A DNA stretch of 61,381 nt, taken from an uncultured Mycoplasmatota bacterium. GTDB taxonomy: Bacteria > Bacillota_I > Bacilli_A > RF39 > UBA660. Positions 7,278-60,971 of this stretch are shown in pieces; position 1 is the first letter of the stretch, and each line of letters begins with the position of its first letter. The notes beneath the pieces are model-generated. The model saw only the letters and a program-made list of their open reading frames with translations, did not search any database and was not told where the DNA came from. A program made the translations under genes and the position numbers. Location of the stretch: assembly GCA_947569245.1 (NCBI GenBank), contig CANORV010000001.1, positions 1 through 61,381 of the forward strand. Direction: 5' to 3'.

Positions 7278-7476
7278 TTATAAAAATCTCCCTTAATTAC
7301 TAATTATTTTAACACATTTATCTTCCAAAATCATCACTTCTATCAATATTTTTATTATTAAAAAAGTTAATATTTTTCACTATCAAAGCACTCTTTTTAT
7401 AATAACTTACTATCAAAAACTAATTTACAACCCAAATTTTTATTATAAACAAAAAAGAGATGATAGCATCACTTTC

Positions 7477-16654: not shown

Positions 16655-16756
16655 AAAATCACACTCCGATACCTTTTAGATATCTAGATTATAGATTAAA
16701 TGAATAATATATACTCAGAAGTTAACCAAAGATAAACTTTTTTAACTTATTTTATG

Positions 16757-16784
16757 TTGCATTTATTACAAAATATGATAAAAT
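16757..16784 (+). promoter_or_regulatory. candidate sigma-A promoter for tRNA-Thr
   Basis: TTGCAT, 16-nt spacer, TG-n-TAAAAT, ending about 15 nt before the tRNA 5' end. Confidence 0.4.
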
Positions 16785-16799
16785 TATATTGTGCTAAAG

Positions 16800-16873
16800 G
16801 CCGATTTAGTTTAGTGGTAAAACAGATGCATGGTAAGCATCAGAGGACTGTTCAATTCAGTCATTCGGCACCA
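16800..16873 (+). tRNA. tRNA-Thr (anticodon GGU), encoded CCA
   Basis: Hand-folded cloverleaf. Acceptor GCCGATT/ATTCGGC (one mismatch). D stem GTTT/AAAC. Anticodon stem GATGC/GCATC with loop ATGGTAA. T arm GACTG-TTCAATT-CAGTC. 3' ACCA. Confidence 0.85.
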
Positions 16874-16893
16874 GATTGATAGGAAACTCGAAC
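16868..16893 (+). repeat. direct repeat copy 1 (tRNA 3' end plus 20 nt), att-like
   Basis: GCACCAGATTGATAGGAAACTCGAAC. It matches 22389-22414 at 24 of 26 positions. Confidence 0.7.
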
Positions 16894-16912
16894 TTCGAGT
16901 AACAATAGAAAG

Positions 16913-16935
16913 CGACTTGTCAAAAAGTCGTTTTT
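16913..16935 (+). terminator. rho-independent terminator after tRNA-Thr
   Basis: CGACTT-GTCAAA-AAGTCG followed by TTTTT. Confidence 0.5.
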
Positions 16936-16949
16936 GTGATATTATGGAT

Positions 16950-17063
16950 ATGTCAAGGAAACTTGCATAAAATAAAAAAGGGAATACTTAACCTTTCCAT
17001 GTTGAGTGTTCGCCAAAGATTTGGTTAGCACTTAATCTACGAAAGTAAATTGAGTGCTTTTTT
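16950..17063 (+). ncRNA. putative small RNA convergent with the 27-aa toxin-like ORF (candidate type I antitoxin)
   Basis: Promoter-like TTGTCA, 17-nt spacer, TG-n-TATTAT (16917-16945). Terminator AGCACTTAAT..ATTGAGTGCT plus T-run (17027-17063). Transcript ends are inferred, not observed. Confidence 0.3.
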
Positions 17064-17077
17064 CTTATGATAGTTTA

Positions 17078-17161
17078 CTATATTACAAAAGTAAAAAGTA
17101 AGGCTATGAGTAAGAAGATAATTAGAATAAGAGAAAGAATCAAAAAATCTTTCTTATGCAT
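17078..17161 (-). CDS. 27-aa hydrophobic peptide, type I toxin-like (MHKKDFLILSLILIIFLLIALLFTFVI)
   Basis: AGGAGG sits 8 nt upstream of the ATG. Single predicted TM helix with a charged N-terminus. Strong promoter upstream. Absent from the ORF track because it is too short. Confidence 0.5.
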   Translation of the reverse strand: MHKKDFLILSLILIIFLLIALLFTFVI

Positions 17162-17224
17162 ATCATCAGCCTCCTTTCACATGAAAGTTGGCAAGCACTC
17201 AACGATTAAGTATTCCTAGTGTTA

Positions 17225-17253
17225 ATTATATCAAGATATTTATTTTATAACAA
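17225..17253 (-). promoter_or_regulatory. candidate sigma-A promoter for the toxin-like ORF
   Basis: Minus strand reads TTGTTA, 17-nt spacer, TG-n-TATAAT. The predicted start falls at the inverted-repeat arm AGGAATACTTAATCG. Confidence 0.5.
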
Positions 17254-17258
17254 TATTA

Positions 17259-17313
17259 TTTACTAAATTCTGACAATTTAGTAAAAACACACTTGCAAAT
17301 TGACATATTCAAT
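17259..17313 (+). repeat. 5' box copy A (conserved sequence upstream of a cargo gene) with hairpins
   Basis: TGACAATTTAGTAAAAACACACTTGCAAATTGACATATTCAAT is about 85% identical to 22491-22531. It is preceded by a perfect 11-bp inverted repeat, TTTACTAAATT/AATTTAGTAAA. Confidence 0.6.
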
Positions 17314-17331
17314 TAGAGAGAAGTGATAACT

Positions 17332-17889
17332 ATGGCTTGTGCAACAATACATTTAGCAATAGCTAAAAAATATTTAAATAAACACGAAGAATTAAATTAT
17401 GAAAAGGTAATTGCAGGGACACTTTATCCAGATGCAGCAGAAGATAATGATAAATCACATTATACTGATATTAATCGTGGTAATGATAATATAAGCCATG
17501 TACGTGGGAAAGTAAATTTATATGCATTTTTAAATGAGCATAAATATTTGGATGATTTTGAGCTGGGTTGGTTCTTACATTTAGTAACAGACTATCTATT
17601 CTTTGAAGAATGTTTTACAGAAGAATATTTATTAAATAATAGCTATAAAGATTTTTGTAAAGATTTGTATTTTGCTTATGATCATTTAAATCTTTATTTA
17701 TCTAAAAAGTATGATATTACAGAAAATGATTACAAAAACTATTCTAGTGAGTATTATCCAGGGAAAAAATATCAAGATTGCATTTTGCCTAAAGAGATGA
17801 TTGATGAGTTTATAGATAGAGTTTCTAATATTGATTTGGATAAATATATTGAGAAAATTGAAAAATATCAAAGTAATATAAAACCATAA
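17332..17889 (+). CDS. hypothetical protein, possibly zinc-dependent phospholipase C/P1-nuclease-fold hydrolase
   Basis: His/Asp pattern 'ATIHLAIA', 'LYPDAAED', 'SHY', 'FLHLVTDY' recalls the Zn-dependent PLC family. The assignment is weak. Start at ATG 17332. Confidence 0.35.
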   Translation: MACATIHLAIAKKYLNKHEELNYEKVIAGTLYPDAAEDNDKSHYTDINRGNDNISHVRGKVNLYAFLNEHKYLDDFELGWFLHLVTDYLFFEECFTEEYLLNNSYKDFCKDLYFAYDHLNLYLSKKYDITENDYKNYSSEYYPGKKYQDCILPKEMIDEFIDRVSNIDLDKYIEKIEKYQSNIKP

Positions 17890-17907
17890 AAGTTGTTGAA
17901 CGTCCTT
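17888..17907 (+). repeat. 3' box copy A
   Basis: AAAAGTTGTTGAACGTCCTT is identical to 23249-23268. It begins within the stop codon of the cargo gene. Confidence 0.6.
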
Positions 17908-17963
17908 CCTTAGGGCACCATTGAGCAATCTATTCTAACTTTTGTTAGATTTAAACATATAGT

Positions 17964-17990
17964 ATCAACTTCAAAAGAAGTTGATTTTTT
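17964..17990 (+). terminator. rho-independent terminator
   Basis: ATCAACTTC-AAAA-GAAGTTGAT followed by TTTTT. Confidence 0.6.
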
Positions 17991-18019
17991 GTATTTAAGA
18001 AAAGAAAGGATAGATTTAG

Positions 18020-18886
18020 ATGATTAAATTAAAAACAAAAGAATTACATTTTGATGAATCTAGTCCACACTTACATATTGTTGGAGTTCCTTTTAAAGAT
18101 GGAATGAAAAATGGTATGGAAAAACAAGTTGGAAAATCTGATGTATTTAATAAAATAAGTTTAGTAAATATTCAAGATAAAATGAGAGAATATTGCATTA
18201 ATTCATTCAATAGAATTTATCATTTAAACTATACTCTTAAAGCAAAAGAAGAAGGAAGAAATGTTGATATTAATGTAGCTAATATGAATGAATATAAAAA
18301 GTTTAAACGAGAACAAGAAAAATACAAAAAGCAACTTAAAGAATTAAATAATAAAACAGATGAATTACAAAACAAATTTAATGAGATTAATGATATTATT
18401 AATAATCTAAAACCCACTATTATGAATAAAAATAATTACTCTATTTCTAGTGAAGATATAGATAAAATCAAAAAATATATAGAACAAACTAATGATACTA
18501 CTTCTAATTTAAGAGATGCTAACGACATAAATATTGTTTTACAAAAATATGAAGATGATTTAAGAGAACACTCTAACGAAGTTAGAAATTTAAAGAAGAA
18601 AATCAAAACTCGTGATGATAGAATTGAAGAATTAGAATATGATTTAGATAATGCCAATGAAACTATTGATGAGTTAGAAGATAAGGTATCAGAATTACAA
18701 AAAATAGTTGATTACTTTAAAGAATTATGGAAGAAGTTTATTGAATTTTTACAAAACAAATTCTTCTCTAATGATAAATATGATGACTTCATCAATGATT
18801 TATATGATGAAGATATACTTGATGACAATGATATAGATATTATTCAAAATAATAAAAATAATGAAAAAGATGATTTTGAAAGATAG
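18020..18886 (+). pseudogene. 5'-truncated MobV/Pre-family relaxase (plasmid recombination/mobilisation enzyme)
   Basis: 'ELHFDESSPHLHIVGVPF' is the MobV HxDExxPHxH motif, which normally lies about 100 aa into the protein. Here it sits at residue 10. The N-terminal catalytic region is missing and a terminator lies just upstream. The C-terminus is coiled-coil-like. Confidence 0.7.
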
Positions 18887-18936
18887 TAAAAAATACCAAT
18901 TTATAGTATAATTTTATTTAGATGTTGGAGGAAGTT

Positions 18937-19683
18937 ATGAATAAAAAAGTAATATTAAATCAAGTTGATAAACTTATAAAAATGTATAATAATGGTGAAC
19001 TTGGTGGTGAAGTAATGCCAGAAGATGCAAATCCTCATTTTGAAAAATCTTCTTTAGAAAATTATTTATATTTTACCGCACCAATGGCATTAAATTATCA
19101 AAGAAATTCCTATACTCTTTGGGAAAGTGCATTGAAAACATACAATGACCCAGAAACTAGATTTGTATTTAATCCTAAAATTTGTTTGGAAAAAACTTTT
19201 GAAGAAGTACAATATGCTTTAACTAAATATAAAGTTGCTTTGCAAAAACAAAAGCAAACTGAAATTTGGTTATCACTATGTAACACTTTTGTAGAATTAT
19301 TTGATGGCGATATAAGAAAGTTATTTGATACATTAGATAATGATGTAGATAAAATTAGAGATTATATTCAAAAAGAAAATAAAAAAAAATTCCCATACTT
19401 ATCTGGAACTAAAATTTGTAATTATTGGATGTATGTAATTTATCAGTATACTGATCGAAAGTATAGAAATATAGAAAATTTAACCGTTGCTCCAGATACT
19501 CATGTATGCAAAGCAACACATAAACTAGGATTAATAAATGAAGATGAATTTAATTCTAGTAATGTTCAACAAATTGTTATAGATAAATGGCAAGAACTAT
19601 TTAAAAATACAAAATATAAACCGATTGACATTCATACCCCACTTTGGTTATGGAGCAGAAATGGTTTTAAGGAGGTAAAGTAA
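18937..19683 (+). CDS. HhH-GPD-superfamily (endonuclease III-like) DNA glycosylase-like protein
   Basis: 'FPYLSGTKICNYWMY' is HhH-like. 'VAPDTHVCKATHKLGLI' resembles EndoIII 'PVDTHVFRVSNRLGL'. Start at MNKKVIL (GGAGG RBS). Confidence 0.5.
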   Translation: MNKKVILNQVDKLIKMYNNGELGGEVMPEDANPHFEKSSLENYLYFTAPMALNYQRNSYTLWESALKTYNDPETRFVFNPKICLEKTFEEVQYALTKYKVALQKQKQTEIWLSLCNTFVELFDGDIRKLFDTLDNDVDKIRDYIQKENKKKFPYLSGTKICNYWMYVIYQYTDRKYRNIENLTVAPDTHVCKATHKLGLINEDEFNSSNVQQIVIDKWQELFKNTKYKPIDIHTPLWLWSRNGFKEVK

Positions 19684-20234
19684 TGAAAGTATTAATAGGA
19701 ACAAAGAATCCAGGAAAAATAGAAGGAGCAACAGAGGCATTTAAAAATTATTTTGATGATTTTGACATTGATGGTATTCCAGTTTCATCAGATGTTAGCA
19801 AAGAACCAGTAAATAATGAAATATATGAAGGTGCTAGAAATCGTGTTAATAATTTAATGAAATATGCTCTAGAAAATGGAATAGATGCTGAATATTTTTT
19901 AGGTGTAGAATCTGGAATAACTAATTTGTTAGGTAAATGGGTTATTATCAATATTGCTGTTATTAAAGATAAAAATGGTTATGAAAGTTGGGGGACAAGC
20001 CCAGCATTTCCTGTACCAGATAAGTATGTTGATGAAATAATTTCAACTGATTTAGGAAAAGTAATGGATAAAATATTTAAGCAAAATGATTTAAGAAGTG
20101 GCAAAGGTGGTATTAGTTTTATTACTAATGGAATAATTAATAGAATAGATTTAACTAGAGAAGCATTTATAATGGCACTTACCCAACATACAAATGAAAT
20201 TTGGAATGATAGAAAAGTATTAGAGAGAAAATGA
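19683..20234 (+). CDS. inosine/xanthosine triphosphatase (YjjX/DUF84 family non-canonical purine NTP phosphatase)
   Basis: 'MKVLIGTKNPGKIEGATEAF', 'EGARNRVNNL' and 'GVESGI' are collinear with E. coli YjjX as I recall it. Confidence 0.75.
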   Translation: MKVLIGTKNPGKIEGATEAFKNYFDDFDIDGIPVSSDVSKEPVNNEIYEGARNRVNNLMKYALENGIDAEYFLGVESGITNLLGKWVIINIAVIKDKNGYESWGTSPAFPVPDKYVDEIISTDLGKVMDKIFKQNDLRSGKGGISFITNGIINRIDLTREAFIMALTQHTNEIWNDRKVLERK

Positions 20235-20246
20235 GGAGGAAATAAA

Positions 20247-20936
20247 ATGAGTAGAAATATTATTATAACTGGTGGAGATGATGGCCTAGGTAAAGCAATA
20301 GCAAAGTTATTAAGTGAAAAAAATAATGTTATTACTATTTCTAAAACAGAAGAAAATGCTATGAAAATATCAAAAGAAATACCTAGAGCAGAATGTTATA
20401 CTTGTGATGTTACTAAACCTGAAGAGGTCAATAATACTATTAAAACGATTATTGGAAATCAAGGAGATATTGATATCTTAATTAATAATGCTGGTGTTTG
20501 GCTAGCGGGAGATTTAACTGAAAATACTTATGAGCAAATTAATAATTGTATAGATGTAAACACTAAAGGACCTATTTATATGACAAAAGCAATATTACCA
20601 AATATGTATGAATCAGGTCATGGATTGATTATTAATGTTTGCTCACAAGCAAGTTTTGATAGTGATGATTTTTCAACTGTTTATAATGCTTCTAAATGGG
20701 CTATGAGAGGATTTAACAGATCTATTCAAAAAGATGTTAGTAAAAAAGGAATTAAAGTTACTGGATTCTATCCTGGATTTATGCAAACTAATATTTTTAA
20801 AAAAGCAGGAAATGATTATGATACATCAACAGGCTTAGAGGTAGAAAAAGTTGCAAAAGCAATTGAATTTATTATTAATTGTGATGATGATGTTATAATA
20901 CCTGAATTTGGAATAAAAGATATAGAAAATTATTAG
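20247..20936 (+). CDS. short-chain dehydrogenase/reductase (SDR)
   Basis: 'ITGGDDGLGKAIA' (TGxxxGxG), 'NNAG', and 'YNASK' (YxxxK). Confidence 0.85.
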   Translation: MSRNIIITGGDDGLGKAIAKLLSEKNNVITISKTEENAMKISKEIPRAECYTCDVTKPEEVNNTIKTIIGNQGDIDILINNAGVWLAGDLTENTYEQINNCIDVNTKGPIYMTKAILPNMYESGHGLIINVCSQASFDSDDFSTVYNASKWAMRGFNRSIQKDVSKKGIKVTGFYPGFMQTNIFKKAGNDYDTSTGLEVEKVAKAIEFIINCDDDVIIPEFGIKDIENY

Positions 20937-20937
20937 T

Positions 20938-21816
20938 ATGAAAGGAATGGGTATAATGGAAGAAAGATTAGTAAGAATTAATTCTGTTGATGAAATAGAA
21001 CAACCAGGTATTTTATATACTCCAAGTGAAGATACAAAAAAAGTTGTTATACATGTTCATGGATTAAATGGAAATTTCTATGAAAATAGATTTATAGATG
21101 TATTAGCAAGTTCCTATACAAGTAAGGGTTATGCTTTCTTAACTTTTAATAATAGAGGTAGAGATTTTATTACAGAGTTACTTAAGGGAAACGATTATAC
21201 AATTATTGGTGGAAGTTTAGAAAGATTTAAAGATTGCATATTAGATATCGAAGGTATAGTTAATTGGGTAAAGGAAAAAGGATATAATGAAATAATACTT
21301 GAAGGACATAGTTATGGGTGCAATAAAGTATTGTATTATTACAATCAAAAAGAAGATGAGAGTATTAAGAAAATAGTATTACTTGCCCCTTGTGATATTC
21401 CATCAGAAGGAAAAAAGTTTTTAAGTGAAAAAAAATATAAAATTGCAAAGGAAGAATCAACTCGATTAGTAAATGAAAATAAAGAAAATGAATTAATTGA
21501 TTTTTCTGTTATGGCTAATGGAAAAATAGCAGCAGGAACATATTATAATGATTTTCTACCTGGTGGAGTTAATGATTTTATTAGATATACAGATGGTATA
21601 AATGGAAAAAGTGAAGTTCTTAATAGTTTAGATATTCCTGTATTAGTAATATTTGGAGATGTCGATGAATGTGTTTTAACTCAATCTATTGATATAGTAA
21701 AAGGATATTTAAGTAATAATATTAATGATTGTAATATTCAAGTTATTAAGGGTGCAGATCATTCATATAATGATAAATATAATGAGTTAGGAGAAATAGT
21801 TAAAAATAATATATGA
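20938..21816 (+). CDS. alpha/beta-fold hydrolase
   Basis: Nucleophile elbow 'GHSYGC'. Candidate acid and His residues at 'FGDVDE' and 'GADHS'. The start codon is uncertain (three ATGs within the first 7 codons). Confidence 0.7.
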   Translation: MKGMGIMEERLVRINSVDEIEQPGILYTPSEDTKKVVIHVHGLNGNFYENRFIDVLASSYTSKGYAFLTFNNRGRDFITELLKGNDYTIIGGSLERFKDCILDIEGIVNWVKEKGYNEIILEGHSYGCNKVLYYYNQKEDESIKKIVLLAPCDIPSEGKKFLSEKKYKIAKEESTRLVNENKENELIDFSVMANGKIAAGTYYNDFLPGGVNDFIRYTDGINGKSEVLNSLDIPVLVIFGDVDECVLTQSIDIVKGYLSNNINDCNIQVIKGADHSYNDKYNELGEIVKNNI

Positions 21817-22268
21817 AAGTATTATTTACAGCATTTAATGGAAAAAGTAATTCTTCAAAACTTTTGTTAGACAAAATTAATAGTGATAATAAATTGTATT
21901 TAAGAAATAGTTTCAGCACTAGTGTTAATCAACTAAAAAAAGAATTGAATAGTAAAAACTATGACTTAATTATTTCATTTGGTCAAGCCCCTTTAGACAA
22001 AGATACTATAAAAATTGAAACTATTGGTCAAGATAAAATAAAATATAAAACAAAATATGATTTTACATCATTAGAAGAAACATTTTGTATTAATAATTAT
22101 AAAACTATTATATCGAATAATGCAGGAGCATACTTATGTAATAATATTTATTTTAATGGACTTAAATATATTGATGATAACAAATTAAATACTAATATGA
22201 TTTTTATTCATATACCAGCAATAGATAATATTAGTAACATTGATAATTTGGCAAATATCTTCAATTAG
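21813..22268 (+). CDS. pyroglutamyl-peptidase I (C15)-like protein
   Basis: 'AGAYLCNNIYF' resembles the catalytic Cys region 'GTFVCN' of pyroglutamyl peptidase, and 'FIHIP' resembles its His region. ATGA overlap with the upstream gene. Confidence 0.5.
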   Translation: MKVLFTAFNGKSNSSKLLLDKINSDNKLYLRNSFSTSVNQLKKELNSKNYDLIISFGQAPLDKDTIKIETIGQDKIKYKTKYDFTSLEETFCINNYKTIISNNAGAYLCNNIYFNGLKYIDDNKLNTNMIFIHIPAIDNISNIDNLANIFN

Positions 22269-22388
22269 AAAAATGTTTAAAAAATATAGCATTATTAGTA
22301 AAAATAGTTTATAATTTAGATATGAAGTCAGTACTATATGTACTTGATTACTTAATTTTGCGAAAAGTTGTAGATAACTATCACTATC

Positions 22389-22414
22389 GCACCAGATTGA
22401 TACCAAACTCGAAC
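22389..22414 (+). repeat. direct repeat copy 2, att-like
   Basis: GCACCAGATTGATACCAAACTCGAAC. Confidence 0.7.
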
Positions 22415-22442
22415 CTCTCTATTTTAGAGAGGCTCGAGTTTT
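22408..22442 (+). terminator. rho-independent terminator downstream of the island-1 operon
   Basis: CTCGAACCTCTCT-ATTTT-AGAGAGGCTCGAG followed by TTTT. Confidence 0.55.
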
Positions 22443-22467
22443 AAAATATCCTAAGTTTTGATATAAT
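22439..22467 (+). promoter_or_regulatory. candidate extended -10 promoter upstream of 5' box B
   Basis: TTTTAA, 17-nt spacer, TG-n-TATAAT. Confidence 0.35.
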
Positions 22468-22490
22468 GTTTTTGTAAATAAATTGAATTT

Positions 22491-22531
22491 TGTCAATTTA
22501 GTAAACACACTTGTACATTGACATCATCAAT
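22491..22531 (+). repeat. 5' box copy B
   Basis: TGTCAATTTAGTAAACACACTTGTACATTGACATCATCAAT. The CATTGA-CATCA-TCAATG hairpin carries a compensatory base-pair change relative to copy A (AATTGA-CATAT-TCAATT). Confidence 0.6.
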
Positions 22532-22552
22532 GAATGTGTGTAGGAGGTACTT

Positions 22553-23260
22553 ATGAAGAAAGATTGTAAATTGACGTTTTTTGAAAATTTCAATGATTTA
22601 AATAATTGGAATTTTAACATTGGAAGTGGACTTAAAAATTTATGGGGGAATCATGAGAAAGAGTTTTATACTCAAAAAGATGATAATATTTATATAAAGG
22701 ATAATAAATTATATATTGTTGCTAAAAGAGAAAAATTTGAAGATTGTAATTATACCTCAGCAAGAATAACTACGAAAGATAAAAAATATTTTAAATATGG
22801 TTATATTGAAATAAAAGCTAAACTTCCTACGGGAAGGGGTTCATGGCCCGCTTTATGGAGGATGGGGCAAAACGGATTATGGCCTATAGGTGGAGAAATA
22901 AATATTATGGAACATATTGGAATTAATCAAAATATGATTTACCACACAATTCATTCTAAAAATCATATATGTAAATCTTATTTCTCACATAAAGAAATAA
23001 TAAATGGTGTTTCAGATGACTTTCATATATACGGAATGCTATGGGAAGAGAATGCTATTGAATTCTTTGTTGATAATGTTCCTTATGGAAAAATAACTAA
23101 TGATAAATATATAAATAAGGAGGATTAGCCATTTAATGATTATTTTTATTTTATTATTAATTTAGCAGTCGGAGGAGATTGGGCTGGAGAAATAGTTGAT
23201 GAAGATTTACCATTTATTTTTATAATTGATTATATTAAGGTTTATCAGAAAAGTTGTTGA
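22553..23260 (+). pseudogene. GH16 beta-glucanase/laminarinase-like gene interrupted by an in-frame TAG
   Basis: 'GGEINIMEH' corresponds to the GH16 ExDxxE motif with Asp replaced by Asn. The TAG at 23126-23128 is followed in the same frame by 'PFNDYFYFIINLAVGGDWAGE...IDYIKVYQ', a typical GH16 C-terminus. No signal peptide. Confidence 0.7.
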
Positions 23261-23268
23261 ACGTCCTT
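23249..23268 (+). repeat. 3' box copy B
   Basis: AAAAGTTGTTGAACGTCCTT. It contains the TGA that ends the extended GH16 frame. Confidence 0.6.
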
Positions 23269-23862
23269 TCCAATGTCATCAGTTTAAGAAACTATGCAAG
23301 AAATTGTATAGGTTTCATCATTTATCACACGCCAAAATTCATCAGTTATAATTGATGTTTAACTGCCTTAATATTAAAATTAAATACTACTTAATTTATT
23401 GTAACTATTCTTATTATAGGGACTAAAATGAACTTTATGTTTCCTACCTTTTCTTATTGGTATTTTATATTTAGACATTTTATTTATTAATTTATCATAC
23501 ACAACTTTAATCTTTTATTTTCGTCTTCTTCTAACATTATCTTTATTCATTACTTTTAAATAATCCTATTGCCATATCTTCATCTATAGTCATTTCATAC
23601 TTATATTTATTTTGTTCTAGTTTTTCTTCTGTTTCTTTCATCATAGACGAAACTATATTAAAAATGAGTACACTAGAGAAAAAATATTGTTCTATTATAA
23701 TCTTGAAACTACTAATAAATTTTTCTGTTTTTAACTTCCATTTTAAAAATTTTTATAAATCGCCCCACTTTGGAAACACTATCTTTAATCTAAGTAAATT
23801 TGACAAAAAAACAATACTTATGCACAATAATAAGTACATTTGAGAGGAGAATAAGAATATAT

Positions 23863-24486
23863 ATGATAATACATACAAAAGAAGAACTTCCTATATTACT
23901 TGACTACTGTAAAGCTACTCCATATTCTGATGCAAAACCTGGTGGAGATTTTTACAAAATTAAATCTCAAACATTTTGCTTTCCTGATGGAACAATACAA
24001 ACTAGAGAATATATAGATAAAAGAAAAGCCAGCGTTGTAATACCAATAACAGAAGATAAAAATGTTGTTTTTGTTATTCAACCAATTGCATTATCAGAGG
24101 AAGGATCTTTAATAGAGTTTCCAGCTGGATATTGGGAGTTAAACGAAGATGGCTTACAAGCTGGAAAAAGAGAACTGTCAGAAGAAACAGGCTATGTTCC
24201 AGAAAAAATACTATATCTTGGTAGCCATTATCAAGATCCTGGTAGTATTAAACAAAAGGTTGATGTATATTTAGCCCTAAATTGTAAAAAGTTACATAAG
24301 CAAAAACTTGATAAAGGTGAATTTATAAAATATGTTGAAATACCATATGATTTAGCTCTTGAATTAATGGATGAAGGATATTTAAAAGATGCTAATTCTT
24401 ACATTGCATTAAGTAAAAGTAATAGAGTTTTACAAAAACAATATAAAAAGCAACAATATAATATTAAAAATAAAAGTTGTAAATAA
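23863..24486 (+). CDS. NUDIX hydrolase (ADP-ribose pyrophosphatase-like)
   Basis: NUDIX box 'GYWELNEDGLQAGKRELSEETGY'. Start moved to MIIHTKEE (GAGAGGAG RBS). Confidence 0.85.
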   Translation: MIIHTKEELPILLDYCKATPYSDAKPGGDFYKIKSQTFCFPDGTIQTREYIDKRKASVVIPITEDKNVVFVIQPIALSEEGSLIEFPAGYWELNEDGLQAGKRELSEETGYVPEKILYLGSHYQDPGSIKQKVDVYLALNCKKLHKQKLDKGEFIKYVEIPYDLALELMDEGYLKDANSYIALSKSNRVLQKQYKKQQYNIKNKSCK

Positions 24487-24497
24487 CTACATTACTA

Positions 24498-24513
24498 ACA
24501 CCAGATTGACAGA
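24498..24513 (+). repeat. direct repeat copy 3 (short), att-like
   Basis: ACACCAGATTGACAGA shares the exact 11-mer CACCAGATTGA with copies 1 and 2. Confidence 0.4.
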
Positions 24514-24721
24514 ATAACGCAAATCTTACTCATAAACATCCAATCTAAAAGGACAAAGAAAAAACTTAACTATTAAATATTTCTAAAATAATTATAACAA
24601 ACATTGTTTCTTATGCAATAATTTTATGCTAACTTTTTTAAATTAACATATAATACAATTATTAAATCTTACCTATTTTCTAAAATAAATCTGTGTTAAA
24701 ATTATATATAGGTGATGTCCT

Positions 24722-25516
24722 TTGAACATATATAAAAATTTAAACAAAATAACTAAATATATCGATGAAAATCTTGAAAATGATATAAACTATGAAACAT
24801 TAGCAAATTTTTTAGGAGTAAATGTCTATACTATGCAAAGATTATTTACTATGATTACAGGTATTTCCCTATCGGAATATATTAGAAAAAGAAGATTATC
24901 TAGTGCCGGTTTTGATTTATATGAGAAGACTTCAAAAATAATTGATATTGCAATTAAATATCAATATGATAATCCAACATCATTTTCTAGGGCATTTGAA
25001 AAATTTCATGGAATTAAACCAAGTCTAGTAAACAAAGTAACGAAACTTAAAAATTTTCCGAGAATAATTTTCAATGAAGATGTTAAAATTACTACTGAAT
25101 TTGACTATGAAATAATCACTCTTGACGAAATGCATCTATATGGTATTGGTATCACAACAAATAATAAAAAAATCACAAATGACGCACCAATCTTTTTTAA
25201 AGAAATCGAAAACAAATATATAAACAAATATGGAGAAATCAAATATGGAATGATTACATATGATACAAAACATGAAGAATGTCAAAAATATTATTGTCTA
25301 TACGATAAAGTAATAGATGAATTTGAAAAGATAATAATTCCTAAAAGTAAATGGTTAAAATTTAGAATCAACTCCCAAAATGCTAAAGACATCCAAGAAA
25401 TATCACATAAATTTTACAAAGAATTTCTACCATCAATTAAATATAATCTAAAAGAAATGCCTGAACTAGAATACTATCATAATGATGTAACTGACTTTTT
25501 GATTGCTATTTATTAA
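24722..25516 (+). CDS. AraC-family transcriptional regulator with GyrI-like effector-binding domain
   Basis: The N-terminal double HTH ('LANFLGVNVYTMQRLF', 'IDIAIKYQYDNPTSFSRAFEKFHGIKP') is AraC-type. The C-terminal ~150 aa are Rob/GyrI-like. TTG start. Confidence 0.8.
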   Translation: MNIYKNLNKITKYIDENLENDINYETLANFLGVNVYTMQRLFTMITGISLSEYIRKRRLSSAGFDLYEKTSKIIDIAIKYQYDNPTSFSRAFEKFHGIKPSLVNKVTKLKNFPRIIFNEDVKITTEFDYEIITLDEMHLYGIGITTNNKKITNDAPIFFKEIENKYINKYGEIKYGMITYDTKHEECQKYYCLYDKVIDEFEKIIIPKSKWLKFRINSQNAKDIQEISHKFYKEFLPSIKYNLKEMPELEYYHNDVTDFLIAIY

Positions 25517-25552
25517 ACTGACAAAATTAGTTGATAAAATGTCAGTTTTTTA
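25517..25552 (+). terminator. rho-independent terminator after the AraC gene
   Basis: ACTGACA-(16 nt)-TGTCAGT followed by TTTTTT. Confidence 0.55.
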
Positions 25553-25593
25553 TTTTACATTTTTGCTATACTTGTAATCAGGGTGACAAATTT

Positions 25594-27450
25594 ATGGTGT
25601 TAACATCAGAAATTTATTTAACCAAAAAATTTGTTTCAAAGAATGAATGGTTAGAATTAATTAAAACAATATCAAATTATAATGGAATTTTAAAAAAATG
25701 GAAAATAATTATTACTAATGATAAAAATCAAATAAGATACTTTATTAAAACTAGATGTACCCTACCAGCTACTATCAATAATTTAAATTCTTTTTTATTA
25801 AAACCTTATAAAGAAATAACTAGCAAAAAATCAAACTATACATTACTCACATTACCAAAATTTGACAGTAATATAATTGATTTAATAAATTATAGTGAAA
25901 TTAAAAATAAAGGTACTCTTGAGTATTTAGAAATTAATTTTTTAAAATTATATGATGATAAAATTAAATCCAATATAACTTATTACTTGAATAAAAATGG
26001 AATAATCAAAAAATATAAAGTAATATTTGCTATTCCAACAAACATATTATCAATAGATTTTGAAGGAAATAAAAGATACTTTTATAAAAGTCCTCCAAAG
26101 TATTTAGAAATTAATAAAATATTAAATTTATTAAGTAGTGATAAAAATAATGCTTTAGTATCTATTGATACATTTCCATATTTACAAGGAAATTTCTATT
26201 TAAATCAAAATAATTTCAGTTTTGATAAACACTCTATCATATTTGGTTCTTCTGGCTCAGGTAAATCTAAATTAATAAGCCTATTAATAAAAAATATTAA
26301 TAAAAATGAAAATTTATATCAAAAATATAAAGTCGTAGTTATTGATCCTCATGCAGCACTTGAAAATGATATTGGTGGTCTAGGAAAAGTTATCGATTTT
26401 AAAAACAGTTTAGACAGCATAGACTTATTTATTAATAATAATAACGACATTGTAGCATCCACTGAACTTTTATTAGATTTATTAAAATCTCTAATTTTAG
26501 ACCAATATAATTCAAAGTTAGAAAGAGTTTTAAGACACTGCATACATTTATTACTGACTGATGAAGCATTTAATTTTAGAAACCTAAGAAAACTTATTTT
26601 AGATTTAGAATATAGGAATACTTTAATTAAAAAATTAAAATATAATTTACCAATTAACGTAATCGATTTCTTTCTATCTGATTTTAATGATTTAAAAACT
26701 AAATCTTATGGTGAAGCTATATCCCCTATTATAAGTTTTATAGACGAAATGGAAATGATTCCCGTATTTAATTCCGAAGAAAATTTAGAAAGTCTAAAAA
26801 ATACAATTGACGATAATTTCTTAACTTTATTCTCACTAGATAGAATAAAATTAGGAGATAAAGTTACTAAAACTATAGCAGGATTAATAATGCAACAATT
26901 ATTAACTATAGCACAAAGTAGAAAAATAAATAAACACATTATATTTATAATAGATGAAGTTGCTGTTGTCGAAAATCCTATTTTATCTAGATATTTATCA
27001 GAAGCAAGAAAATATAATTTATCTTTAATACTAATAGGACAATATTTTAATCAAATATCAACCGAATTAAAAAACTCTATCTTTGCTAATGTTATCAATT
27101 ACTTTATATTCAGAGTATCAAAATTAGATGCCAGTTTATTAGTTGATAATTTTAATATGAAAATACCTTTAGATGACTCTAGAGATAGAAAAATCAAACT
27201 ATTGACTGAATTAAACAACAGAGAGTGCATTATAAGAATAGATTCAAATAAAATATTATTACCAGCATTTAAAGCAACTACATTAGATTACACAAGTATT
27301 CCTAGAATTAAGAAAACAACCATAGATTATGATAATAGCAAAAATAGTAAAAATACATCAAGTAAATCAAAAACTGATTTTAGCTTAAATAATGATATAA
27401 GTTTAAAAGATATTTTAATATCAAATTCAACAAACAAGAAAGGTGTGTAA
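25594..27450 (+). CDS. HerA/DUF87-like P-loop ATPase (FtsK-HerA superfamily)
   Basis: Walker A 'GSSGSGKS' followed by 'VVVIDPHAALEN'. Walker B 'IIFIIDEVA'. 'EARKYNLSLILIGQ'. A ~220-aa N-terminal domain is unassigned. Start at MVLTSEI (GGGTGA RBS). Confidence 0.65.
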   Translation: MVLTSEIYLTKKFVSKNEWLELIKTISNYNGILKKWKIIITNDKNQIRYFIKTRCTLPATINNLNSFLLKPYKEITSKKSNYTLLTLPKFDSNIIDLINYSEIKNKGTLEYLEINFLKLYDDKIKSNITYYLNKNGIIKKYKVIFAIPTNILSIDFEGNKRYFYKSPPKYLEINKILNLLSSDKNNALVSIDTFPYLQGNFYLNQNNFSFDKHSIIFGSSGSGKSKLISLLIKNINKNENLYQKYKVVVIDPHAALENDIGGLGKVIDFKNSLDSIDLFINNNNDIVASTELLLDLLKSLILDQYNSKLERVLRHCIHLLLTDEAFNFRNLRKLILDLEYRNTLIKKLKYNLPINVIDFFLSDFNDLKTKSYGEAISPIISFIDEMEMIPVFNSEENLESLKNTIDDNFLTLFSLDRIKLGDKVTKTIAGLIMQQLLTIAQSRKINKHIIFIIDEVAVVENPILSRYLSEARKYNLSLILIGQYFNQISTELKNSIFANVINYFIFRVSKLDASLLVDNFNMKIPLDDSRDRKIKLLTELNNRECIIRIDSNKILLPAFKATTLDYTSIPRIKKTTIDYDNSKNSKNTSSKSKTDFSLNNDISLKDILISNSTNKKGV

Positions 27451-27453
27451 AAA

Positions 27454-28152
27454 ATGAATGATAAAAAAGTACTAGAAATTATTAATAAGATATTTAAAAA
27501 TATATTTAATAAAGAGAATAATTATTCCTTAGATACATTATTAGAAAAATTTGCTTTTGATATTAAACTACCAAAACAAGTTAATGATTCAACTACAAAT
27601 GAAATAACTTGGGCTGATGCTATCAATAGTGGTAGATTTATTACAAATAAAAATATGGAAAAAAAAGATGAAACTGAAGGTTGGATGCTACCAAAAAAAG
27701 AAATTAATAATCTTCAAGAATTAATTGATATCTGGAATACAATTAATTTAACTACAACTGAAAGAGTATACGATTCAATTAATGTTTCCAAAAGTGATAC
27801 TATTTATAGATGTGAAAATATATATAGAAGTACTGGTTGTAGTGATTCCAAAAACTTAATTTATTGTGACTCTTGTACAAATAGTGAATTCTTACTTGCA
27901 TCACAAAGATCAACAACTTGTAATTTTAGCATAAGATGTGATGATTCTAAAGATTGTAGTAACAATTATAATGTCATATGTTCAAATAAAATAAGTAATT
28001 CCCTATTTATTCAAGACTGTTTTGACTTATATGAATGTATGTTTTGTTCTCATATAGCATCAAAAAGATTTTGTATAGTAAATATGCAATTTGAAGAACA
28101 AGAGTATTATGAAATAAAAAAACTAATTATAGAATGGATATTAAACTCTTAA
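27454..28152 (+). CDS. Cys-rich repeat protein of unknown function
   Basis: 232 aa. Twelve Cys lie in the last ~95 residues in short periodic units (STGCSDS, IYCDSC, TTCNFS, IRCDDS, KDCSNN, VICSNK), and none in the first ~117. Starts 3 nt after the ATPase stop. Confidence 0.55.
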   Translation: MNDKKVLEIINKIFKNIFNKENNYSLDTLLEKFAFDIKLPKQVNDSTTNEITWADAINSGRFITNKNMEKKDETEGWMLPKKEINNLQELIDIWNTINLTTTERVYDSINVSKSDTIYRCENIYRSTGCSDSKNLIYCDSCTNSEFLLASQRSTTCNFSIRCDDSKDCSNNYNVICSNKISNSLFIQDCFDLYECMFCSHIASKRFCIVNMQFEEQEYYEIKKLIIEWILNS

Positions 28153-28328
28153 AAAGACCGATACTTTATAAAAATCTATACTATAATTAACAAAATACAT
28201 TTGATAAAAACATTATTGTATGCTATTTCTAAATATATTAAAAAAACATTAATCATAAAAAATTAAAATTATACGAAAGACAATTAATACAACTAATAAA
28301 ACTACCCTTATAAAAAGGAAAACTAATT

Positions 28329-29207
28329 ATGAATAATCATGAAAAAAATAATTTACTTAATTCAATCTATTTATCAATAATTACAGCATCTGATTTAACA
28401 CAATATCTTATTAAAATTAAAAACATCATTTACTTACTTGAAGAAAATCAAAAAACAATTCAAGAAATTGAAAAACTATATCAGGAATTTTTAGATAATT
28501 ATTATAATCTAAACAATATTTTTAACTTTAACAATCAGATACAAATATATACCCTATACAAAAAATTATTACTTGATGGATATTTATCAAAAGATAAAAC
28601 TTTTAACTTCAGAAATGATCTTCAAAATGAAACAACAAAAAAGTTATATGGTACAAAAATTTTTACTGGATATGCTTGCTGTAGACATATCTCAGCAATG
28701 CTTTGTGATATTTTAAATAATCTTAATATTCCCTCATGCACTGTACATGTATACTTTCCTGATTCAACGGATGACTATCTAATAAAAGATGAAAAAACTC
28801 TAATTAACTATCAAAATCAAAAAACTTTTTTAGAACTACTAAAAAAAATAATAGGAAATCATGCCATAACATACAGTTATCAAAACGAAAAAAATTACTT
28901 TTTAGATGCATCTTGTAACGATATATATGAGTTAAATAAATCTAAAAAAAATATTTTAACAAGTATAGACAATAAAAATAATACACCAATTTTCATCAAA
29001 AAAACTACTGAAGGCTATAACTTTCCCATAAAAAAAATAACCAAAAAGAATAATATTAGTTACGATGAAGTACAACTATTTGCTAATGAAGTAAAAAATA
29101 TATACCATAACAATATAGATATTTTTGAACATTTTTATAACGAAAACCAAGAAATATACAAAAACATCTATTCCAAAACACTAAACTTCTATCGTTTTAT
29201 AAAATAA
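28329..29207 (+). CDS. hypothetical protein with transglutaminase/papain-like Cys-His-Asp pattern
   Basis: 'TGYACCRHISAMLCDILNNLNIPSCTVHVY' then 'GNHAITYSY..NYFLDAS'. Order and spacing match the transglutaminase-like core. Confidence 0.45.
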   Translation: MNNHEKNNLLNSIYLSIITASDLTQYLIKIKNIIYLLEENQKTIQEIEKLYQEFLDNYYNLNNIFNFNNQIQIYTLYKKLLLDGYLSKDKTFNFRNDLQNETTKKLYGTKIFTGYACCRHISAMLCDILNNLNIPSCTVHVYFPDSTDDYLIKDEKTLINYQNQKTFLELLKKIIGNHAITYSYQNEKNYFLDASCNDIYELNKSKKNILTSIDNKNNTPIFIKKTTEGYNFPIKKITKKNNISYDEVQLFANEVKNIYHNNIDIFEHFYNENQEIYKNIYSKTLNFYRFIK

Positions 29208-29272
29208 TTATAGCATATTTTTCTTGCCAAAACTCGAACAATAGTATAAACTGTTATTTGAGGTGTTTTATA

Positions 29273-30826
29273 ATGCAATTAAAATTTTCAGATGATTTTA
29301 ACTATATTATTGAAGATTTCAAAATTTGGAAAAGTGAAAAAAACATACCAATAAATATAAAAAAATATATAAAAGAAACATCTGATACAATCACCATTTA
29401 TGCAAAAGATACTAATAATCTTTATTGTGCAAAATGCCTAAAACAACTAGACCAAAATAACTACTGTAAAACTTGCAACATTTCACATAATAATATTATA
29501 AATAATATAAAAAATATTGATATAGAAGATGTAGATGAATTTCACAAAGATTTAAAAATCGTTGACACAATCAAAGATTGCTATGGCAGCTATTGTACTT
29601 ACTCTTGCTACTACTATGTCTTTGACAAAATTGATGAAAATATCTTCCTATATCTTTTAAAAGAAAATATTACTTATAATAACCCATTTAAAATAGGAAG
29701 TTATAAACAATCAAATATCAATATTAATAATGCCTATCTAATACAAAAAGACAAAATACTAGACATTTTCACAAATAAATATTATAAATTCGAAACTATG
29801 AACTATAATGATGAACTCGAAAATAACGATAATATAGACGAAAAAAAGTTTAATGAATATATAGATACCCTTGATTTTTTATACCCTGAAATTAATGCAT
29901 TCTTATATATAGATAACCTTTATATTCTAAAAGATTCTATATATAAATATACTACCTTCATAGAAAATGCTTCTTATTTAACAAACAAAAATAAAATATC
30001 CTTAGCCCAACTTACTTATTTACCAATATACTGTAAAGCATTTGAATATCTATCAAAACTAAAATTGTATAATCTAGCATTTAATAATGCCGACGTTTTC
30101 AAAAGTGGAAAAAACTTTAAAGAAATCTTTAAAATTGAAAAAAGTCACCTACCATTCATGAGAAATAATGACATATCATACAATACTCTAGTAGCCTTAC
30201 AACTTTGTCAAACAGAAGACAAAAACCTATTAAATTTTTTAGAAAGTCAAATATTAATAGCAACTGACATAATAAAAGATTTTAAGATAGATGCTAAAAA
30301 ATTAAAAAACTATTTTGATAAATTAAACCTAGATGAAACCTATCTAAACGAGTACCATGATTATTTAAAAATGGCCAAAGATTTAGGACTAGATTTAAAA
30401 GATAAAACAATACTTTACCCTAAAAACTTACTACTAGAACATGATAAACTATACCTACAAATAGAAACTAATAAAGACCCTAACATGGATCAAAAAATTA
30501 GAAATTTAGCTAATATTTCAGCACTAAATTACTATGAAGACGAAAATTATATTATTTTTCCTGCTAACTCCATCAGCTGTTTAATTGATGAAAGCAATCA
30601 ACAACATAACTGTGTTCGTACTTACTGTAAAAAACTTGCTAGTAACAACTGTCAAATATACTTTCTAAGAAAAAAAAGTGATAAAAACAAATCACTTGTT
30701 ACAATAGAAGTAAAAAATAATCAAGTAATTCAAGCCAGAGAAAAATTTAATAAAAATATATCTGACGAATATAAAAAAATAATTGATAAATGGAAAAAAG
30801 ACTTACTTCCAATTATAAACAACTAA
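29273..30826 (+). CDS. PcfJ-like protein with N-terminal zinc-ribbon
   Basis: 'CAKCLKQLDQNNYCKTCN' is a CxxC..CxxC ribbon. The C-terminal 'ESNQQHNCVRTYCKKLASNNCQIYFLRKK...VTIEVKNNQVIQAREKFNKN' resembles the PcfJ domain as I recall it. Start at MQLKFSD (GAGGTG RBS). Confidence 0.5.
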   Translation: MQLKFSDDFNYIIEDFKIWKSEKNIPINIKKYIKETSDTITIYAKDTNNLYCAKCLKQLDQNNYCKTCNISHNNIINNIKNIDIEDVDEFHKDLKIVDTIKDCYGSYCTYSCYYYVFDKIDENIFLYLLKENITYNNPFKIGSYKQSNININNAYLIQKDKILDIFTNKYYKFETMNYNDELENNDNIDEKKFNEYIDTLDFLYPEINAFLYIDNLYILKDSIYKYTTFIENASYLTNKNKISLAQLTYLPIYCKAFEYLSKLKLYNLAFNNADVFKSGKNFKEIFKIEKSHLPFMRNNDISYNTLVALQLCQTEDKNLLNFLESQILIATDIIKDFKIDAKKLKNYFDKLNLDETYLNEYHDYLKMAKDLGLDLKDKTILYPKNLLLEHDKLYLQIETNKDPNMDQKIRNLANISALNYYEDENYIIFPANSISCLIDESNQQHNCVRTYCKKLASNNCQIYFLRKKSDKNKSLVTIEVKNNQVIQAREKFNKNISDEYKKIIDKWKKDLLPIINN

Positions 30827-30862
30827 AAACAACTATACTGTCAATAACCAGAAAGGAAAAAA

Positions 30863-31387
30863 ATGAAAAACAAAGATATCCTAAACAAATCCATAATTCT
30901 AATTGGTCCAATGTGTGTTGGAAAAACAACAATGGCAAAATTACTAAGAAAAAAACTAAACATGAATAATATCTCACTAGATAATAAAGAACAACTAAAA
31001 TATTTATATCAAAATACTAACAACTTCAAAAATCAAGAACAATTTAATTTATATTTAGTAAAAACAATAATATCCAATTTAAAATCACCAACTATCATTG
31101 ACTTTGGAGCAAACCATTCCATATACGATGATATAAACGACTTTAAAAAAATAAAAAACATCTTAAAAGATTTTAAAAACATCATTCTCCTAATTCCAAG
31201 TTCTAATACTCTAGAATCAATAGAAATTCTAGCCAAAAGAAAAAAAGAACTATTAAGTACAAAGCCATATAACCAAAAACCAATTACTAGTCCGTGTAAC
31301 TATACTCTTGCAACAATCACAATCTATACTAAAAATAAAACCGAAGAACAAACCCTCAAAGAAATATTAAAACATCTTAATCAATAA
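30863..31387 (+). CDS. P-loop kinase-like protein (shikimate/gluconate kinase-like fold)
   Basis: Walker A 'LIGPMCVGKTT' at the N-terminus, 174 aa. Substrate unknown. Confidence 0.5.
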   Translation: MKNKDILNKSIILIGPMCVGKTTMAKLLRKKLNMNNISLDNKEQLKYLYQNTNNFKNQEQFNLYLVKTIISNLKSPTIIDFGANHSIYDDINDFKKIKNILKDFKNIILLIPSSNTLESIEILAKRKKELLSTKPYNQKPITSPCNYTLATITIYTKNKTEEQTLKEILKHLNQ

Positions 31388-31421
31388 AAAAAGAAAGAAC
31401 ACCGCTCTTTTTTATTCACTA

Positions 31422-60937: not shown

Positions 60938-60968
60938 GAAAAATAACAATAATTTTGTGAATATTGTT
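60938..60968 (-). terminator. hairpin terminator after the 78-aa ORF
   Basis: AACAATA-(10 nt)-TATTGTT with T-runs on both strands. Confidence 0.45.
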
Positions 60969-60971
60969 TTT

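Follow-up and report, generated by a model that had tools for sequence, protein, structure and literature searches.

The stretch of DNA analysed here, 61,381 nucleotides from an uncultured Mycoplasmatota bacterium (contig CANORV010000001.1; hereafter the window), carries at 16874-24503 an array of at least four mobile elements, non-autonomous or decayed, that lie in tandem directly 3' of the CCA of a tRNA-Thr(GGT) gene. This gene (16800-16873, plus strand; found by ARAGORN, with an Rfam tRNA score of 61.7 bits) is the sole Rfam match within 16700-24800, and the array is inserted at its 3' CCA, from which four elements, here termed cassettes, run head to tail in the same orientation, all on the plus strand. 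Cassette 1 (16874-17920) is a non-autonomous unit of 1,047 bp with copies at three tRNA genes; cassette 2 (17921-22394) appears to be a decayed integrative mobilizable element (IME) of a second lineage; cassette 3 (22395-23281) consists of a left end, a promoter-like site, a conserved '5' box', a glycoside hydrolase family 16 (GH16) pseudogene and a degenerate right end; and cassette 4 (23282-24503) of a degenerate left end, a NUDIX gene and a right end at 24472-24503 (AAAAGTTGTAAATAACTACATTACTAACACCA). The cassettes each terminate in a right end of 32-33 nt closing in (C/A)ACCA, or in ATCA in the decayed cassette 3, and cassettes 1, 3 and 4 have kept the left and right ends of the family, with the enzyme genes absent. 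The preliminary description of this DNA had spoken of segments bounded by an attachment (att) repeat. The repeat, CACCAGATTGATA, does occur at 16869 and 22390, and with 1 mismatch at 24499, but the first of these segments comprises two elements, cassette 1 ending at 17920 with a CACCA of its own.

Cassettes 1 and 3 carry unrelated cargo genes between the same two conserved boxes. Cargo 1 (17332-17889, plus strand) encodes a 185-aa protein, and cargo 3 (22553-23260, plus strand) is the GH16 pseudogene (Pfam Glyco_hydro_16, 2.4e-20), interrupted by one in-frame TAG at codon 192. Upstream, the two copies of the 5' box (17266-17313 and 22486-22531) are 86-88% identical, with 2 extra A's in the A-run of the first copy, and contain, as had been claimed, a 6-bp hairpin that differs by a compensatory change (AATTGA..TCAATT versus CATTGA..TCAATG). 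Downstream, the 3' box is an identical 20-mer, AAAAGTTGTTGAACGTCCTT, at 17888-17907 and 23249-23268 (2 matches at up to 3 mismatches, with 0.01 expected); the TAA of gene 1 (17887-17889) overlaps its start, and the final TGA of the GH16 frame (23258-23260) lies inside it, in agreement with the original reading. Of the equivalent positions proposed for the boxes, that of the 3' box stands, at 13 nt from the element end in both cassettes, but that of the 5' box does not: its distance from the left end is ~390 nt in cassette 1, where a toxin-antitoxin-like module intervenes, and ~90 nt in cassette 3. The 'phospholipase C-fold-like' label once given to gene 1 comes down to a weak link to zinc phospholipase C, as its protein has no Pfam or PDB sequence match and a few of its 318 homologues have a precomputed PF00882 match.

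Cassette 1 has moved recently, as shown by copies that are 99.4-100% identical over 1,047 bp at three tRNA genes, namely tRNA-Thr(GGT) in the window, tRNA-Arg(ACG) at loci L003 and L008, and tRNA-Phe(GAA) at L004, with different right flanks. The exact 185-aa product is found on contigs with at least 5 different gene neighbourhoods. On the left, the copies begin with GATTGATAGGAAACTCGAAC directly after the tRNA CCA, the flanks diverging at CCA|GATTGATAGG; on the right, all close in ...AAAAGTTGTTGAACGTCCTTCCTTAGGGCACCA with unrelated DNA beyond, and divergence sets in exactly after ...GGGCACCA, so that the boundaries are defined to within the CNCCA repeat (an ambiguity of up to 5 bp). The unit observed moving is therefore the whole 1,047-bp cassette and not the cargo alone. 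It is delimited by a left end at 16874-16903 (plus strand; GATTGATAGGAAACTCGAAC plus a short hairpin), proposed as the P' half of an attachment site, and a 33-nt right end at 17888-17920 (plus strand; the 3' box plus CCTTAGGGCACCA), proposed as the P half, the latter with a position-weight score of 25.8 against a shuffle maximum of 16.5. The near-identical copies (window, L001-L010) differ in one place of the 5' box, carrying 3, 4 or 5 A's in the A-run at 17283-17287 (TAGTAAA[A][A]CACAC), a hypervariable homopolymer that would alter the distance between the elements of a putative promoter or between the arms of a transfer origin. At L169, the neighbour found after cassette 1 in the window is instead preceded by a different cassette.

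The ends of these cassettes define a family. Scanning one-genome-per-species contigs with the left-end pattern CCAGATTGATANNAAACTCGA returned at least 120 loci, nearly all in metagenome-assembled genomes (MAGs) from the gut labelled as uncultured Bacilli, Tenericutes, Erysipelotrichaceae or Mycoplasma, and the family left end reads GATTGATA-NN-AAACTCGAAC. Among the matches listed, it starts directly after CCA in 122 of 122 instances, from more than 120 genomes. With a slightly looser pattern (125 instances), a tRNA-like 3' end precedes the left end 87 times and a non-tRNA end 38 times; in nearly all of the latter cases this is the right end of another element, and in one a tRNA that the test had overlooked. 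The 69 host tRNA genes typed by ARAGORN represent 16 anticodon species, and the motif is absent downstream of those tRNA genes at these loci that carry no insertion. Insertion at the 3' ends of many different tRNA genes and tandem arrangement are both shown for the family.

Intact relatives reveal the complete anatomy: left end, an 89-aa open reading frame (ORF), a large serine recombinase (LSR), a MobV relaxase, 5' box, cargo and right end. A recombinase or relaxase whose distribution tracks the boxes had been proposed, and intact relatives encode both between the left end and the 5' box, as a 613-621-aa protein followed by an overlapping one of 406-418 aa. In L037, the larger protein matches Pfam Resolvase (3.5e-33), Recombinase (1.6e-18) and Zn_ribbon_recom, and the second Mob_Pre (1e-28); the best PDB sequence match of the large recombinase is TP901-1 integrase (1.3e-21), with a weak match to TnpX (2.9e-06). 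An integration/excision enzyme of their own is encoded in L036, L037, L062, L086, L094 and L115, of which L036 (4,293 bp) and L115 (3,996 bp) are complete, with the 5' box directly after mob and a terminal right end of the 3'-box type. Their right ends (AAAGTTGTTGTACTTCTTCCCTTAGGGCACCA) are of the same type as that of cassette 1, and both boxes therefore delimit the cargo slot of this element family.

What fills this slot varies widely. In other genomes and metagenomes, at least 12 unrelated cargo types, and also empty shells, are found between the same boxes, which bears out the proposal of one backbone with interchangeable cargo; the chance that no other cargo would be found anywhere is clearly disposed of. 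Elsewhere the slot holds a CitG-like protein, an M3 peptidase, a short-chain dehydrogenase (SDR), a cupin, a PhzF-like protein, GNAT acetyltransferases and several proteins of unknown function. An exact scan of metagenomes with the 20-mer returned 10 genuine matches, all with a full right end and with a 5' box and left end upstream, and these carry at least 6 different cargos, including a transglutaminase-like protein. The empty shell of L119 (reverse strand, 7170-7412) is reduced to 242 bp with left end, promoter-like site, 5' box and right end and no ORF, and the autonomous L115 has a 408-bp cargo slot without an ORF. The clearest case of exchange is the pair L048/L062, both autonomous and nearly identical except for what lies between the boxes. 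Their backbones are 89-96% identical up to a point exactly after GTGTG, where the identity stops; the cargos are unrelated, and similarity resumes 83 nt before the right end.

Taken with the recombinase, the boundaries and the recent movement, these observations let us state with high confidence that the backbone around the boxes is that of a mobile element, and it is likely that the cassettes belong to a family of IMEs, the array having formed by accretion at the 3' end of tRNA-Thr. Some points pull the other way. Searches of the window by tblastn and phmmer gave no match to a serine recombinase or an intact relaxase, and Pfam found no recombinase among the ORFs of 14.2-32.2 kb, so the helper enzymes would be encoded elsewhere in the genome or have been lost; and the search pattern itself accounts for part of the left-end conservation.

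The 3' box is the inner two-thirds of the 33-nt right end and very probably serves as the outer recognition motif of an att half-site. Right ends share a fixed length of 33 nt, with an outer motif, AAAGTTGTAGAT or AAAGTTGTTGAA, at -31..-20, then a variable stretch, and GCACCA at the end. They do not fold better than shuffled sequences (z +0.5 and -0.3), and so suit a protein-binding site in double-stranded DNA. When the right-end profile was compared with the reverse complement of the left-end profile, 1 of 29 offsets was positive (modest statistics, the left end being partly fixed by the search); this offset pairs AAAGTTGTAGAT with AAAGTTCGAGTT, the complement of left-end positions +12..+23, and places the centre between tRNA positions 72 and 73. 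Attachment sites of LSRs are imperfect dyads of ~40-50 bp around a crossover dinucleotide, in which only ~2 bp are necessarily common to both partners. The layout seen here, with inverted outer motifs ~30 bp apart and a central dinucleotide, is as would be expected of a serine-integrase attP, and attL and attR of 24 delimited elements have only CNCCA in common (up to 5 bp). The crossover would lie 9-13 nt to the right of the 3' box, inside CNCCA. The discriminator base matches (T/T) in both informative tRNA cases (L037 and L125), which together with the dyad centre favours positions 72/73. Against that position, an array junction at L087 shows a T/A mismatch that fits a crossover inside CCA. 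Neither an empty site nor an excised-circle junction was recovered, an exact-match scan of metagenomes for the empty tRNA-Arg(ACG) site giving 0 matches. The idea that the right end is a tRNA 3' fragment was set aside, as the T-stem cannot be drawn, and its resemblance to a T-arm shifted by 4 bp is weak in an offset test against real tRNA ends. Viral-contig matches to the 16-mer core of the 3' box were likewise discarded, all 25 of 25 being due to chance (high-GC contexts, no AAAA prefix, no CCA end).

The 5' box calls for a different explanation. A fuzzy search gave 42 copies, of which 36 distinct ones were aligned, with a consensus of ACTAAATTTTGTCAATTTAGTAAACACACTTG, hairpin and (C)GTGTG, the most conserved part being AAACACACTTG (an example oligonucleotide reads AAACACACTTGTACATTGACATAATCAATGAACGTGTGTAAT). 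Across these 36 copies the inner hairpin covaries: over 13 pairs the covariation score reaches 0.25, compared with 0.12 for shuffles (0 of 500 got as high) and at most 0.10 when the partner is slid by 1-3 columns, and pairs 39-60, 41-58 and 46-53 each occur as 2-3 Watson-Crick types in many sequences. The early suggestion that structure is kept through compensatory change thus extends from two copies to the whole family. In plasmid pMV158, the origin of transfer (oriT) reads GCACACACTTTATGAATATAAAGTATAGTGTG/TTATAC, and the relaxase MobM nicks the coding strand after GTGTG, at the 3' end of a long inverted repeat (IR3) (PMC5863519). Because the architecture of the 5' box (CACAC, co-varying hairpin, GTGTG/T) matches this MobV oriT, we hold with moderate confidence that the box is a transfer origin nicked by a MobV relaxase. 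Its place directly after the relaxase gene in autonomous elements and its retention in enzyme-less cassettes and empty shells fit such a role. The copy in cassette 3 (22480-22540, plus strand) is a complete putative site of this kind, CACAC-TTGTACATTGA-CATCA-TCAATGAAT-GTGTG, with an inverted-repeat arm at 22508-22540 that ends in GTGTG and a predicted nick after 22540; the copy in cassette 1 (17262-17316, plus strand), also putatively MobV-oriT-like, keeps the inner hairpin intact. The boxes had also been imagined as a pair of sites for cargo-specific recombination, a view not supported in that form, the 3' box being part of the att site of the whole element and the 5' box looking like an oriT.

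Several observations count against the transfer-origin reading. Second-lineage IMEs (cassette 2 of the window, L076 and L020) lack a 5' box after mob. A GTGTG-like nick motif is kept in 14 of the 36 boxes only, and cassette 1, which has clearly moved recently, has GAGAG in its place; single-sequence hairpin energies are unremarkable (z -1.7 to -1.9), leaving only the covariation across the family as informative; and the excess of wobble pairs on the plus strand is small (21 versus 13). As a side observation, a distant search with the L036 element in plasmid and phage collections found only the MobV gene of a Clostridium baratii plasmid (L177; NZ_CP124311.1), which lacks the 5' box. At 2810-2870, upstream of its related mobV, this plasmid carries ATTGACATAAAATCTTGTCAATTTTGCTTAAAGTGTATGG, an inverted repeat followed by a GTGT motif that has ATTGACATAA in common with the 5' box; it is a possible oriT of the plasmid.

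The main alternative view of the 5' box is that it is mostly an expression element, a promoter or operator or a structured leader, the two boxes forming an 'expression shell' together with a downstream terminator and att. The box always lies just upstream of the cargo's ribosome-binding site, its consensus can be read as a -35 TTGTCA and a -10 TATATT separated by 17-19 nt (22490-22519), and in cassette 3 and its class the box would be transcribed, given an extended -10 promoter-like site 40 nt ahead of it. The 22 of 36 boxes without GTGTG, recently mobile cassette 1 among them, and an A-run of 3-5 A's in the putative spacer of otherwise identical copies can be cited on the same side. Yet the most conserved part, AAACACACTTG, would then be the spacer, which is normally unconstrained; a promoter leaves the hairpin covariation unexplained; in autonomous elements the box comes right behind the relaxase gene and is built like a MobV oriT that has been characterised; empty shells retain it with nothing there to be expressed; and no Rfam family matches it. 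We consider this account unlikely as the main function of the box. The pMV158 oriT itself holds an embedded promoter (PMC5863519), so both functions may coexist, and by analogy the 5' box may contain a promoter besides oriT. How the cargo is replaced is a separate question, to which ordinary homologous recombination between conserved backbone segments of tandem or transferred elements (left end to 5' box on one side, terminator and right end on the other) gives a rather improbable answer, if one of some substance. In its favour, backbones of different elements are 88-96% identical, across hundreds of bases at the left and ~85 nt at the right, many breakpoints do not coincide with GTGTG (the toxin-antitoxin-type cassettes lose similarity at the inner hairpin), and upstream similarity of box pairs varies. 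On the other side, the best pair, L048/L062, diverges exactly after GTGTG, and the common segment on the right is short for a RecA-dependent exchange; the mechanisms are not exclusive.

Three further readings concern the elements as such. Insertion beside a fixed pentanucleotide repeated at the right end, the lack of terminal inverted repeats and a subterminal hairpin in the left end recall non-autonomous elements of the IS200/IS605 type, which a Y1 HUH transposase would insert as single strands 3' of CACCA. We rejected this as very improbable, as TnpA/TnpB were seen in no locus, autonomous relatives carry an LSR, the right end lacks a significant or conserved hairpin, and left and right motifs are inverted, not direct. 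Capture by a tyrosine integrase at folded attC-like sites, as in integrons, would agree with the observed arrays, in which cassettes with few promoters and mostly a single gene share one orientation downstream of a fixed site, and with GTTGAAC in the 3' box, which fits GTTRRRY. No tyrosine recombinase was found in the scanned region of the window or in related loci, the right end is unfolded and the array starts at a tRNA gene rather than at an attI beside intI, so that this reading, including GTTGAAC as part of an attC, was likewise rejected and is extremely improbable. That each box has just two copies in the window could finally point to chance similarity or to the remnant of one ordinary duplication, an explanation that is refuted, the 20-mer being expected 0.01 times by chance and both boxes being found again around other cargos in numerous genomes and metagenomes.

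From what is established about serine integrases, MobV relaxases and the accretion of IMEs and CIMEs (cis-mobilizable elements; PMC5704250), we infer a route of movement: which enzyme acts, where the crossover lies, that the 5' box works as an oriT, that enzyme-less cassettes are mobilised in trans and that cargo is exchanged at the nick site. Excision would yield a circle that joins right and left ends in a ~54-bp imperfect dyad with AAAGTTGTAGAT-type motifs 30 bp apart, the expected junction reading ...CCTTAGGGCACCAGATTGATAGGAAACTCG. The serine recombinase would recombine this joined site with the last bases (CNCCA) of a tRNA gene, and each insertion, closing in its own CACCA, would recreate the target, hence the head-to-tail pile-up of elements. 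For cassettes 1 and 3, excision and integration, and possibly transfer, would depend on enzymes supplied in trans. A MobV relaxase would nick the 5' box at GTGTG/T; the cargo would then lie between nick site and right end, and a cargo-plus-right-end module could be swapped against the module that extends from left end to oriT, either through relaxase initiation and termination at the two oriTs of a tandem array or through recombination in the conserved boxes. With a generic tRNA 3' end as the landing site, almost any tRNA gene could host an array. Put together, these elements possibly represent an undescribed and widespread integron-like cassette system of uncultured gut Bacilli, in which a serine recombinase reads tRNA 3' ends (acceptor end, CCA and perhaps T-arm), one-gene cassettes carry their own ends and a MobV oriT, and the nick site is the breakpoint of cargo exchange; we advance this combined proposal tentatively.

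The remaining features of the array fit into this picture to varying degrees. In cassette 1, the left end is followed by a terminator (16912-16935) and a module extending to 17253 (16912-17253, no strand assigned) that looks like a par/Fst-style type I toxin-antitoxin system: a minus-strand gene (17078-17161) with a GGAGG ribosome-binding site encodes a hydrophobic 27-aa peptide (MHKKDFLILSLILIIFLLIALLFTFVI), and convergent promoter-like sites share a common terminator (17027-17063), with complementary stretches at 16980-17014 and 17190-17216. Pfam and Rfam gave no match to this module, which comes after the left end in many relatives. Cassette 2 has a variant left end (17921-17949), cargo genes at 18922-22268 and a right end at 22362-22394, and on sequence grounds is a deletion derivative of a second-lineage IME. 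Its ORF 18020-18886 opens with the first 13 codons of a small ORF and continues as the distal part of a MobV gene (Mob_Pre at 22.3 bits, under the cut-off of 25.5, and homologous to full Mob genes). The fusion point is a 12-bp repeat, CATTTTGATGAA (18047-18058), that is present in both parent genes and encodes HFDE in each, so a deletion at this repeat would have removed the serine recombinase. Intact versions of the parent genes occur in L001, L169, L076, L084 and L020, and the intact small ORF is retained in L001, a strain of the same Joint Genome Institute (JGI) sample, and in L169. Cassette 3 has its left end at 22395-22442 and the promoter-like site at 22440-22467; because the terminal 13 nt of its right end (23249-23281, plus strand; 3' box intact) have diverged, with ATCA for ACCA, it is probably immobilised. 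Cassettes 1 and 3 come from the lineage with a 5' box and a right end of the GTTGTTGAAC type, and the boxes occur in only two of the four cassettes because cassettes 2 and 4 carry a different right-end type, GTTGTAGAT or GTTGTAAAT. The likeness of GTTGTAGAT, seen in many right ends, to the 3' end of Cas12a repeats was dismissed as coincidence, as the upstream TCTAC partner is absent and the motif is variable.

Beyond the array, the region 24504-31400 directly follows with genes for an AraC/GyrI-like regulator, an FtsK/TraG-like coupling-type ATPase (25531-27450), a PcfJ-like protein (29258-30826) and an AAA protein. It begins with a left-end-like sequence, GATTGACA (24504-24520 on the plus strand reads GATTGACAGAATAACGC), and a right end was not found at its far side; this gene group may be the remnant of a conjugative or mobilizable element. 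Near the other edge of the window lies a second family right end, ACAAGAGTTCAAAATAGGCTCTTTTATCACACCA (60852-60885, minus strand; score 24), followed by a degenerate left end, AATTTGAGGATAACTTGAAC..., and another CACCA junction near 61330, which suggests that 60852-61381 belongs to a second array whose tRNA gene lies beyond the window's right edge. A near-identity search of plasmid and phage collections with 16800-24700 gave no match. Looking up the tRNA-Thr site through the neighbouring helix-turn-helix (HTH) gene led to contigs that break within the left end, and looking up the genes of cassette 2 led to window-like or truncated contigs only. In general, contigs with cassette 1 or the tRNA-Thr neighbour gene are mostly short and broken inside a left or right end, so that the family is apparently a frequent cause of tRNA-adjacent assembly breaks in these organisms.

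If the combined proposal is true, much of the strain-level gene variation next to tRNA genes in little-known lineages of gut Bacilli and "Tenericutes" stems from one simple system, and the left end, 5' box and right end could be used as markers for genomic islands and for breakpoints in metagenome assemblies. It also raises the questions of how a serine integrase reads the end of a structured-RNA gene common to many loci and whether relaxase nick sites act as points of cargo shuffling. Serine recombinases with a short, conserved and naturally multi-copy target would moreover be of interest as tools for genome engineering.

Among known systems, Tn4451 has targets that resemble the joint of its circular form. 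Like the elements described here, Tn4451/Tn4453 are small chromosomal elements with an LSR (TnpX), a MobV (Mob_Pre) relaxase (TnpZ) and an oriT (RS_A), and they share very short identical end sequences and an expected circular intermediate (PMC5704250). They differ in targeting GA-containing sites of low specificity instead of tRNA 3' ends; by Pfam, the L037 recombinase lacks DUF4368, the mark of the multi-targeting TnpX-like clade; and only in the present family do recombinase and mob genes overlap, with oriT downstream of mob and single-gene non-autonomous derivatives in arrays. Decayed elements with attL and attR that stand in tandem because incoming elements integrate into a resident att site are known as CIMEs (PMC5704250), and cassettes 1, 3 and 4, bounded by attL and attR, devoid of recombination and transfer genes and arranged in tandem at one target, fit that definition. 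Classic cases of such accretion, on the model of ICESt1/ICESt3, in contrast involve tyrosine integrases, one specific tRNA gene and repeats of 10-50 bp, whereas the present family points to a serine recombinase, with no more than 5 bp repeated and 16 or more tRNA species as targets; its derivatives also keep an oriT-like site, and one of them, cassette 1, is demonstrably spreading on its own. The ssrA islands of Dehalococcoides, which stand in tandem at the tmRNA 3' end with a conserved integration module and phylogenetically discordant cargo, have also been read as IMEs (PMC3146451); they use ssrA as the single target, measure ~12 kb and have a longer direct repeat, and the parts of that study available to us describe neither a MobV/oriT module nor single-gene minimal cassettes (PMC3146451).

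The 5' box shares with the pMV158 oriT, the substrate of the MOBV1 relaxase MobM, a CACAC...GTGTG outer stem around an inner hairpin, a nick site directly after GTGTG and transfer of the coding strand (both predicted here), overlapping alternative inverted repeats and an embedded promoter, in the box a putative one (PMC5863519). It differs in the unrelated sequence of its inner hairpin, in lying downstream of mob and in the loss of GTGTG from more than half of the copies. Integron arrays are similar in consisting of ordered small, mostly one-gene units, each with a conserved 3' recombination site, and in including ORF-less cassettes; their tyrosine recombinase IntI, folded single-stranded attC and fixed intI-attI-Pc platform are all absent here. 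Prochlorococcus tycheposons, as reportedly described by Hackl et al. in 2023, are tandem cargo-carrying elements at tRNA genes with cargo-only satellites mobilised in trans; they are said to differ in their tyrosine recombinases, partial tRNA repeats, marine cyanobacterial hosts and lack of a relaxase/oriT module. In the open full-text literature, we found no description of a serine-recombinase family that uses the ends of many different tRNA genes, nor of reduction to one-gene cassettes with an oriT-like site in integron-like arrays; site-specific serine-recombinase IMEs integrate within genes according to a 2017 review of IMEs (PMC5704250), and a large LSR survey preprint nowhere mentions tRNA. 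The parts themselves are known already, namely serine-recombinase IMEs with a Mob/Pre relaxase, CIMEs and accretion, arrays of ssrA islands and the pMV158 oriT.

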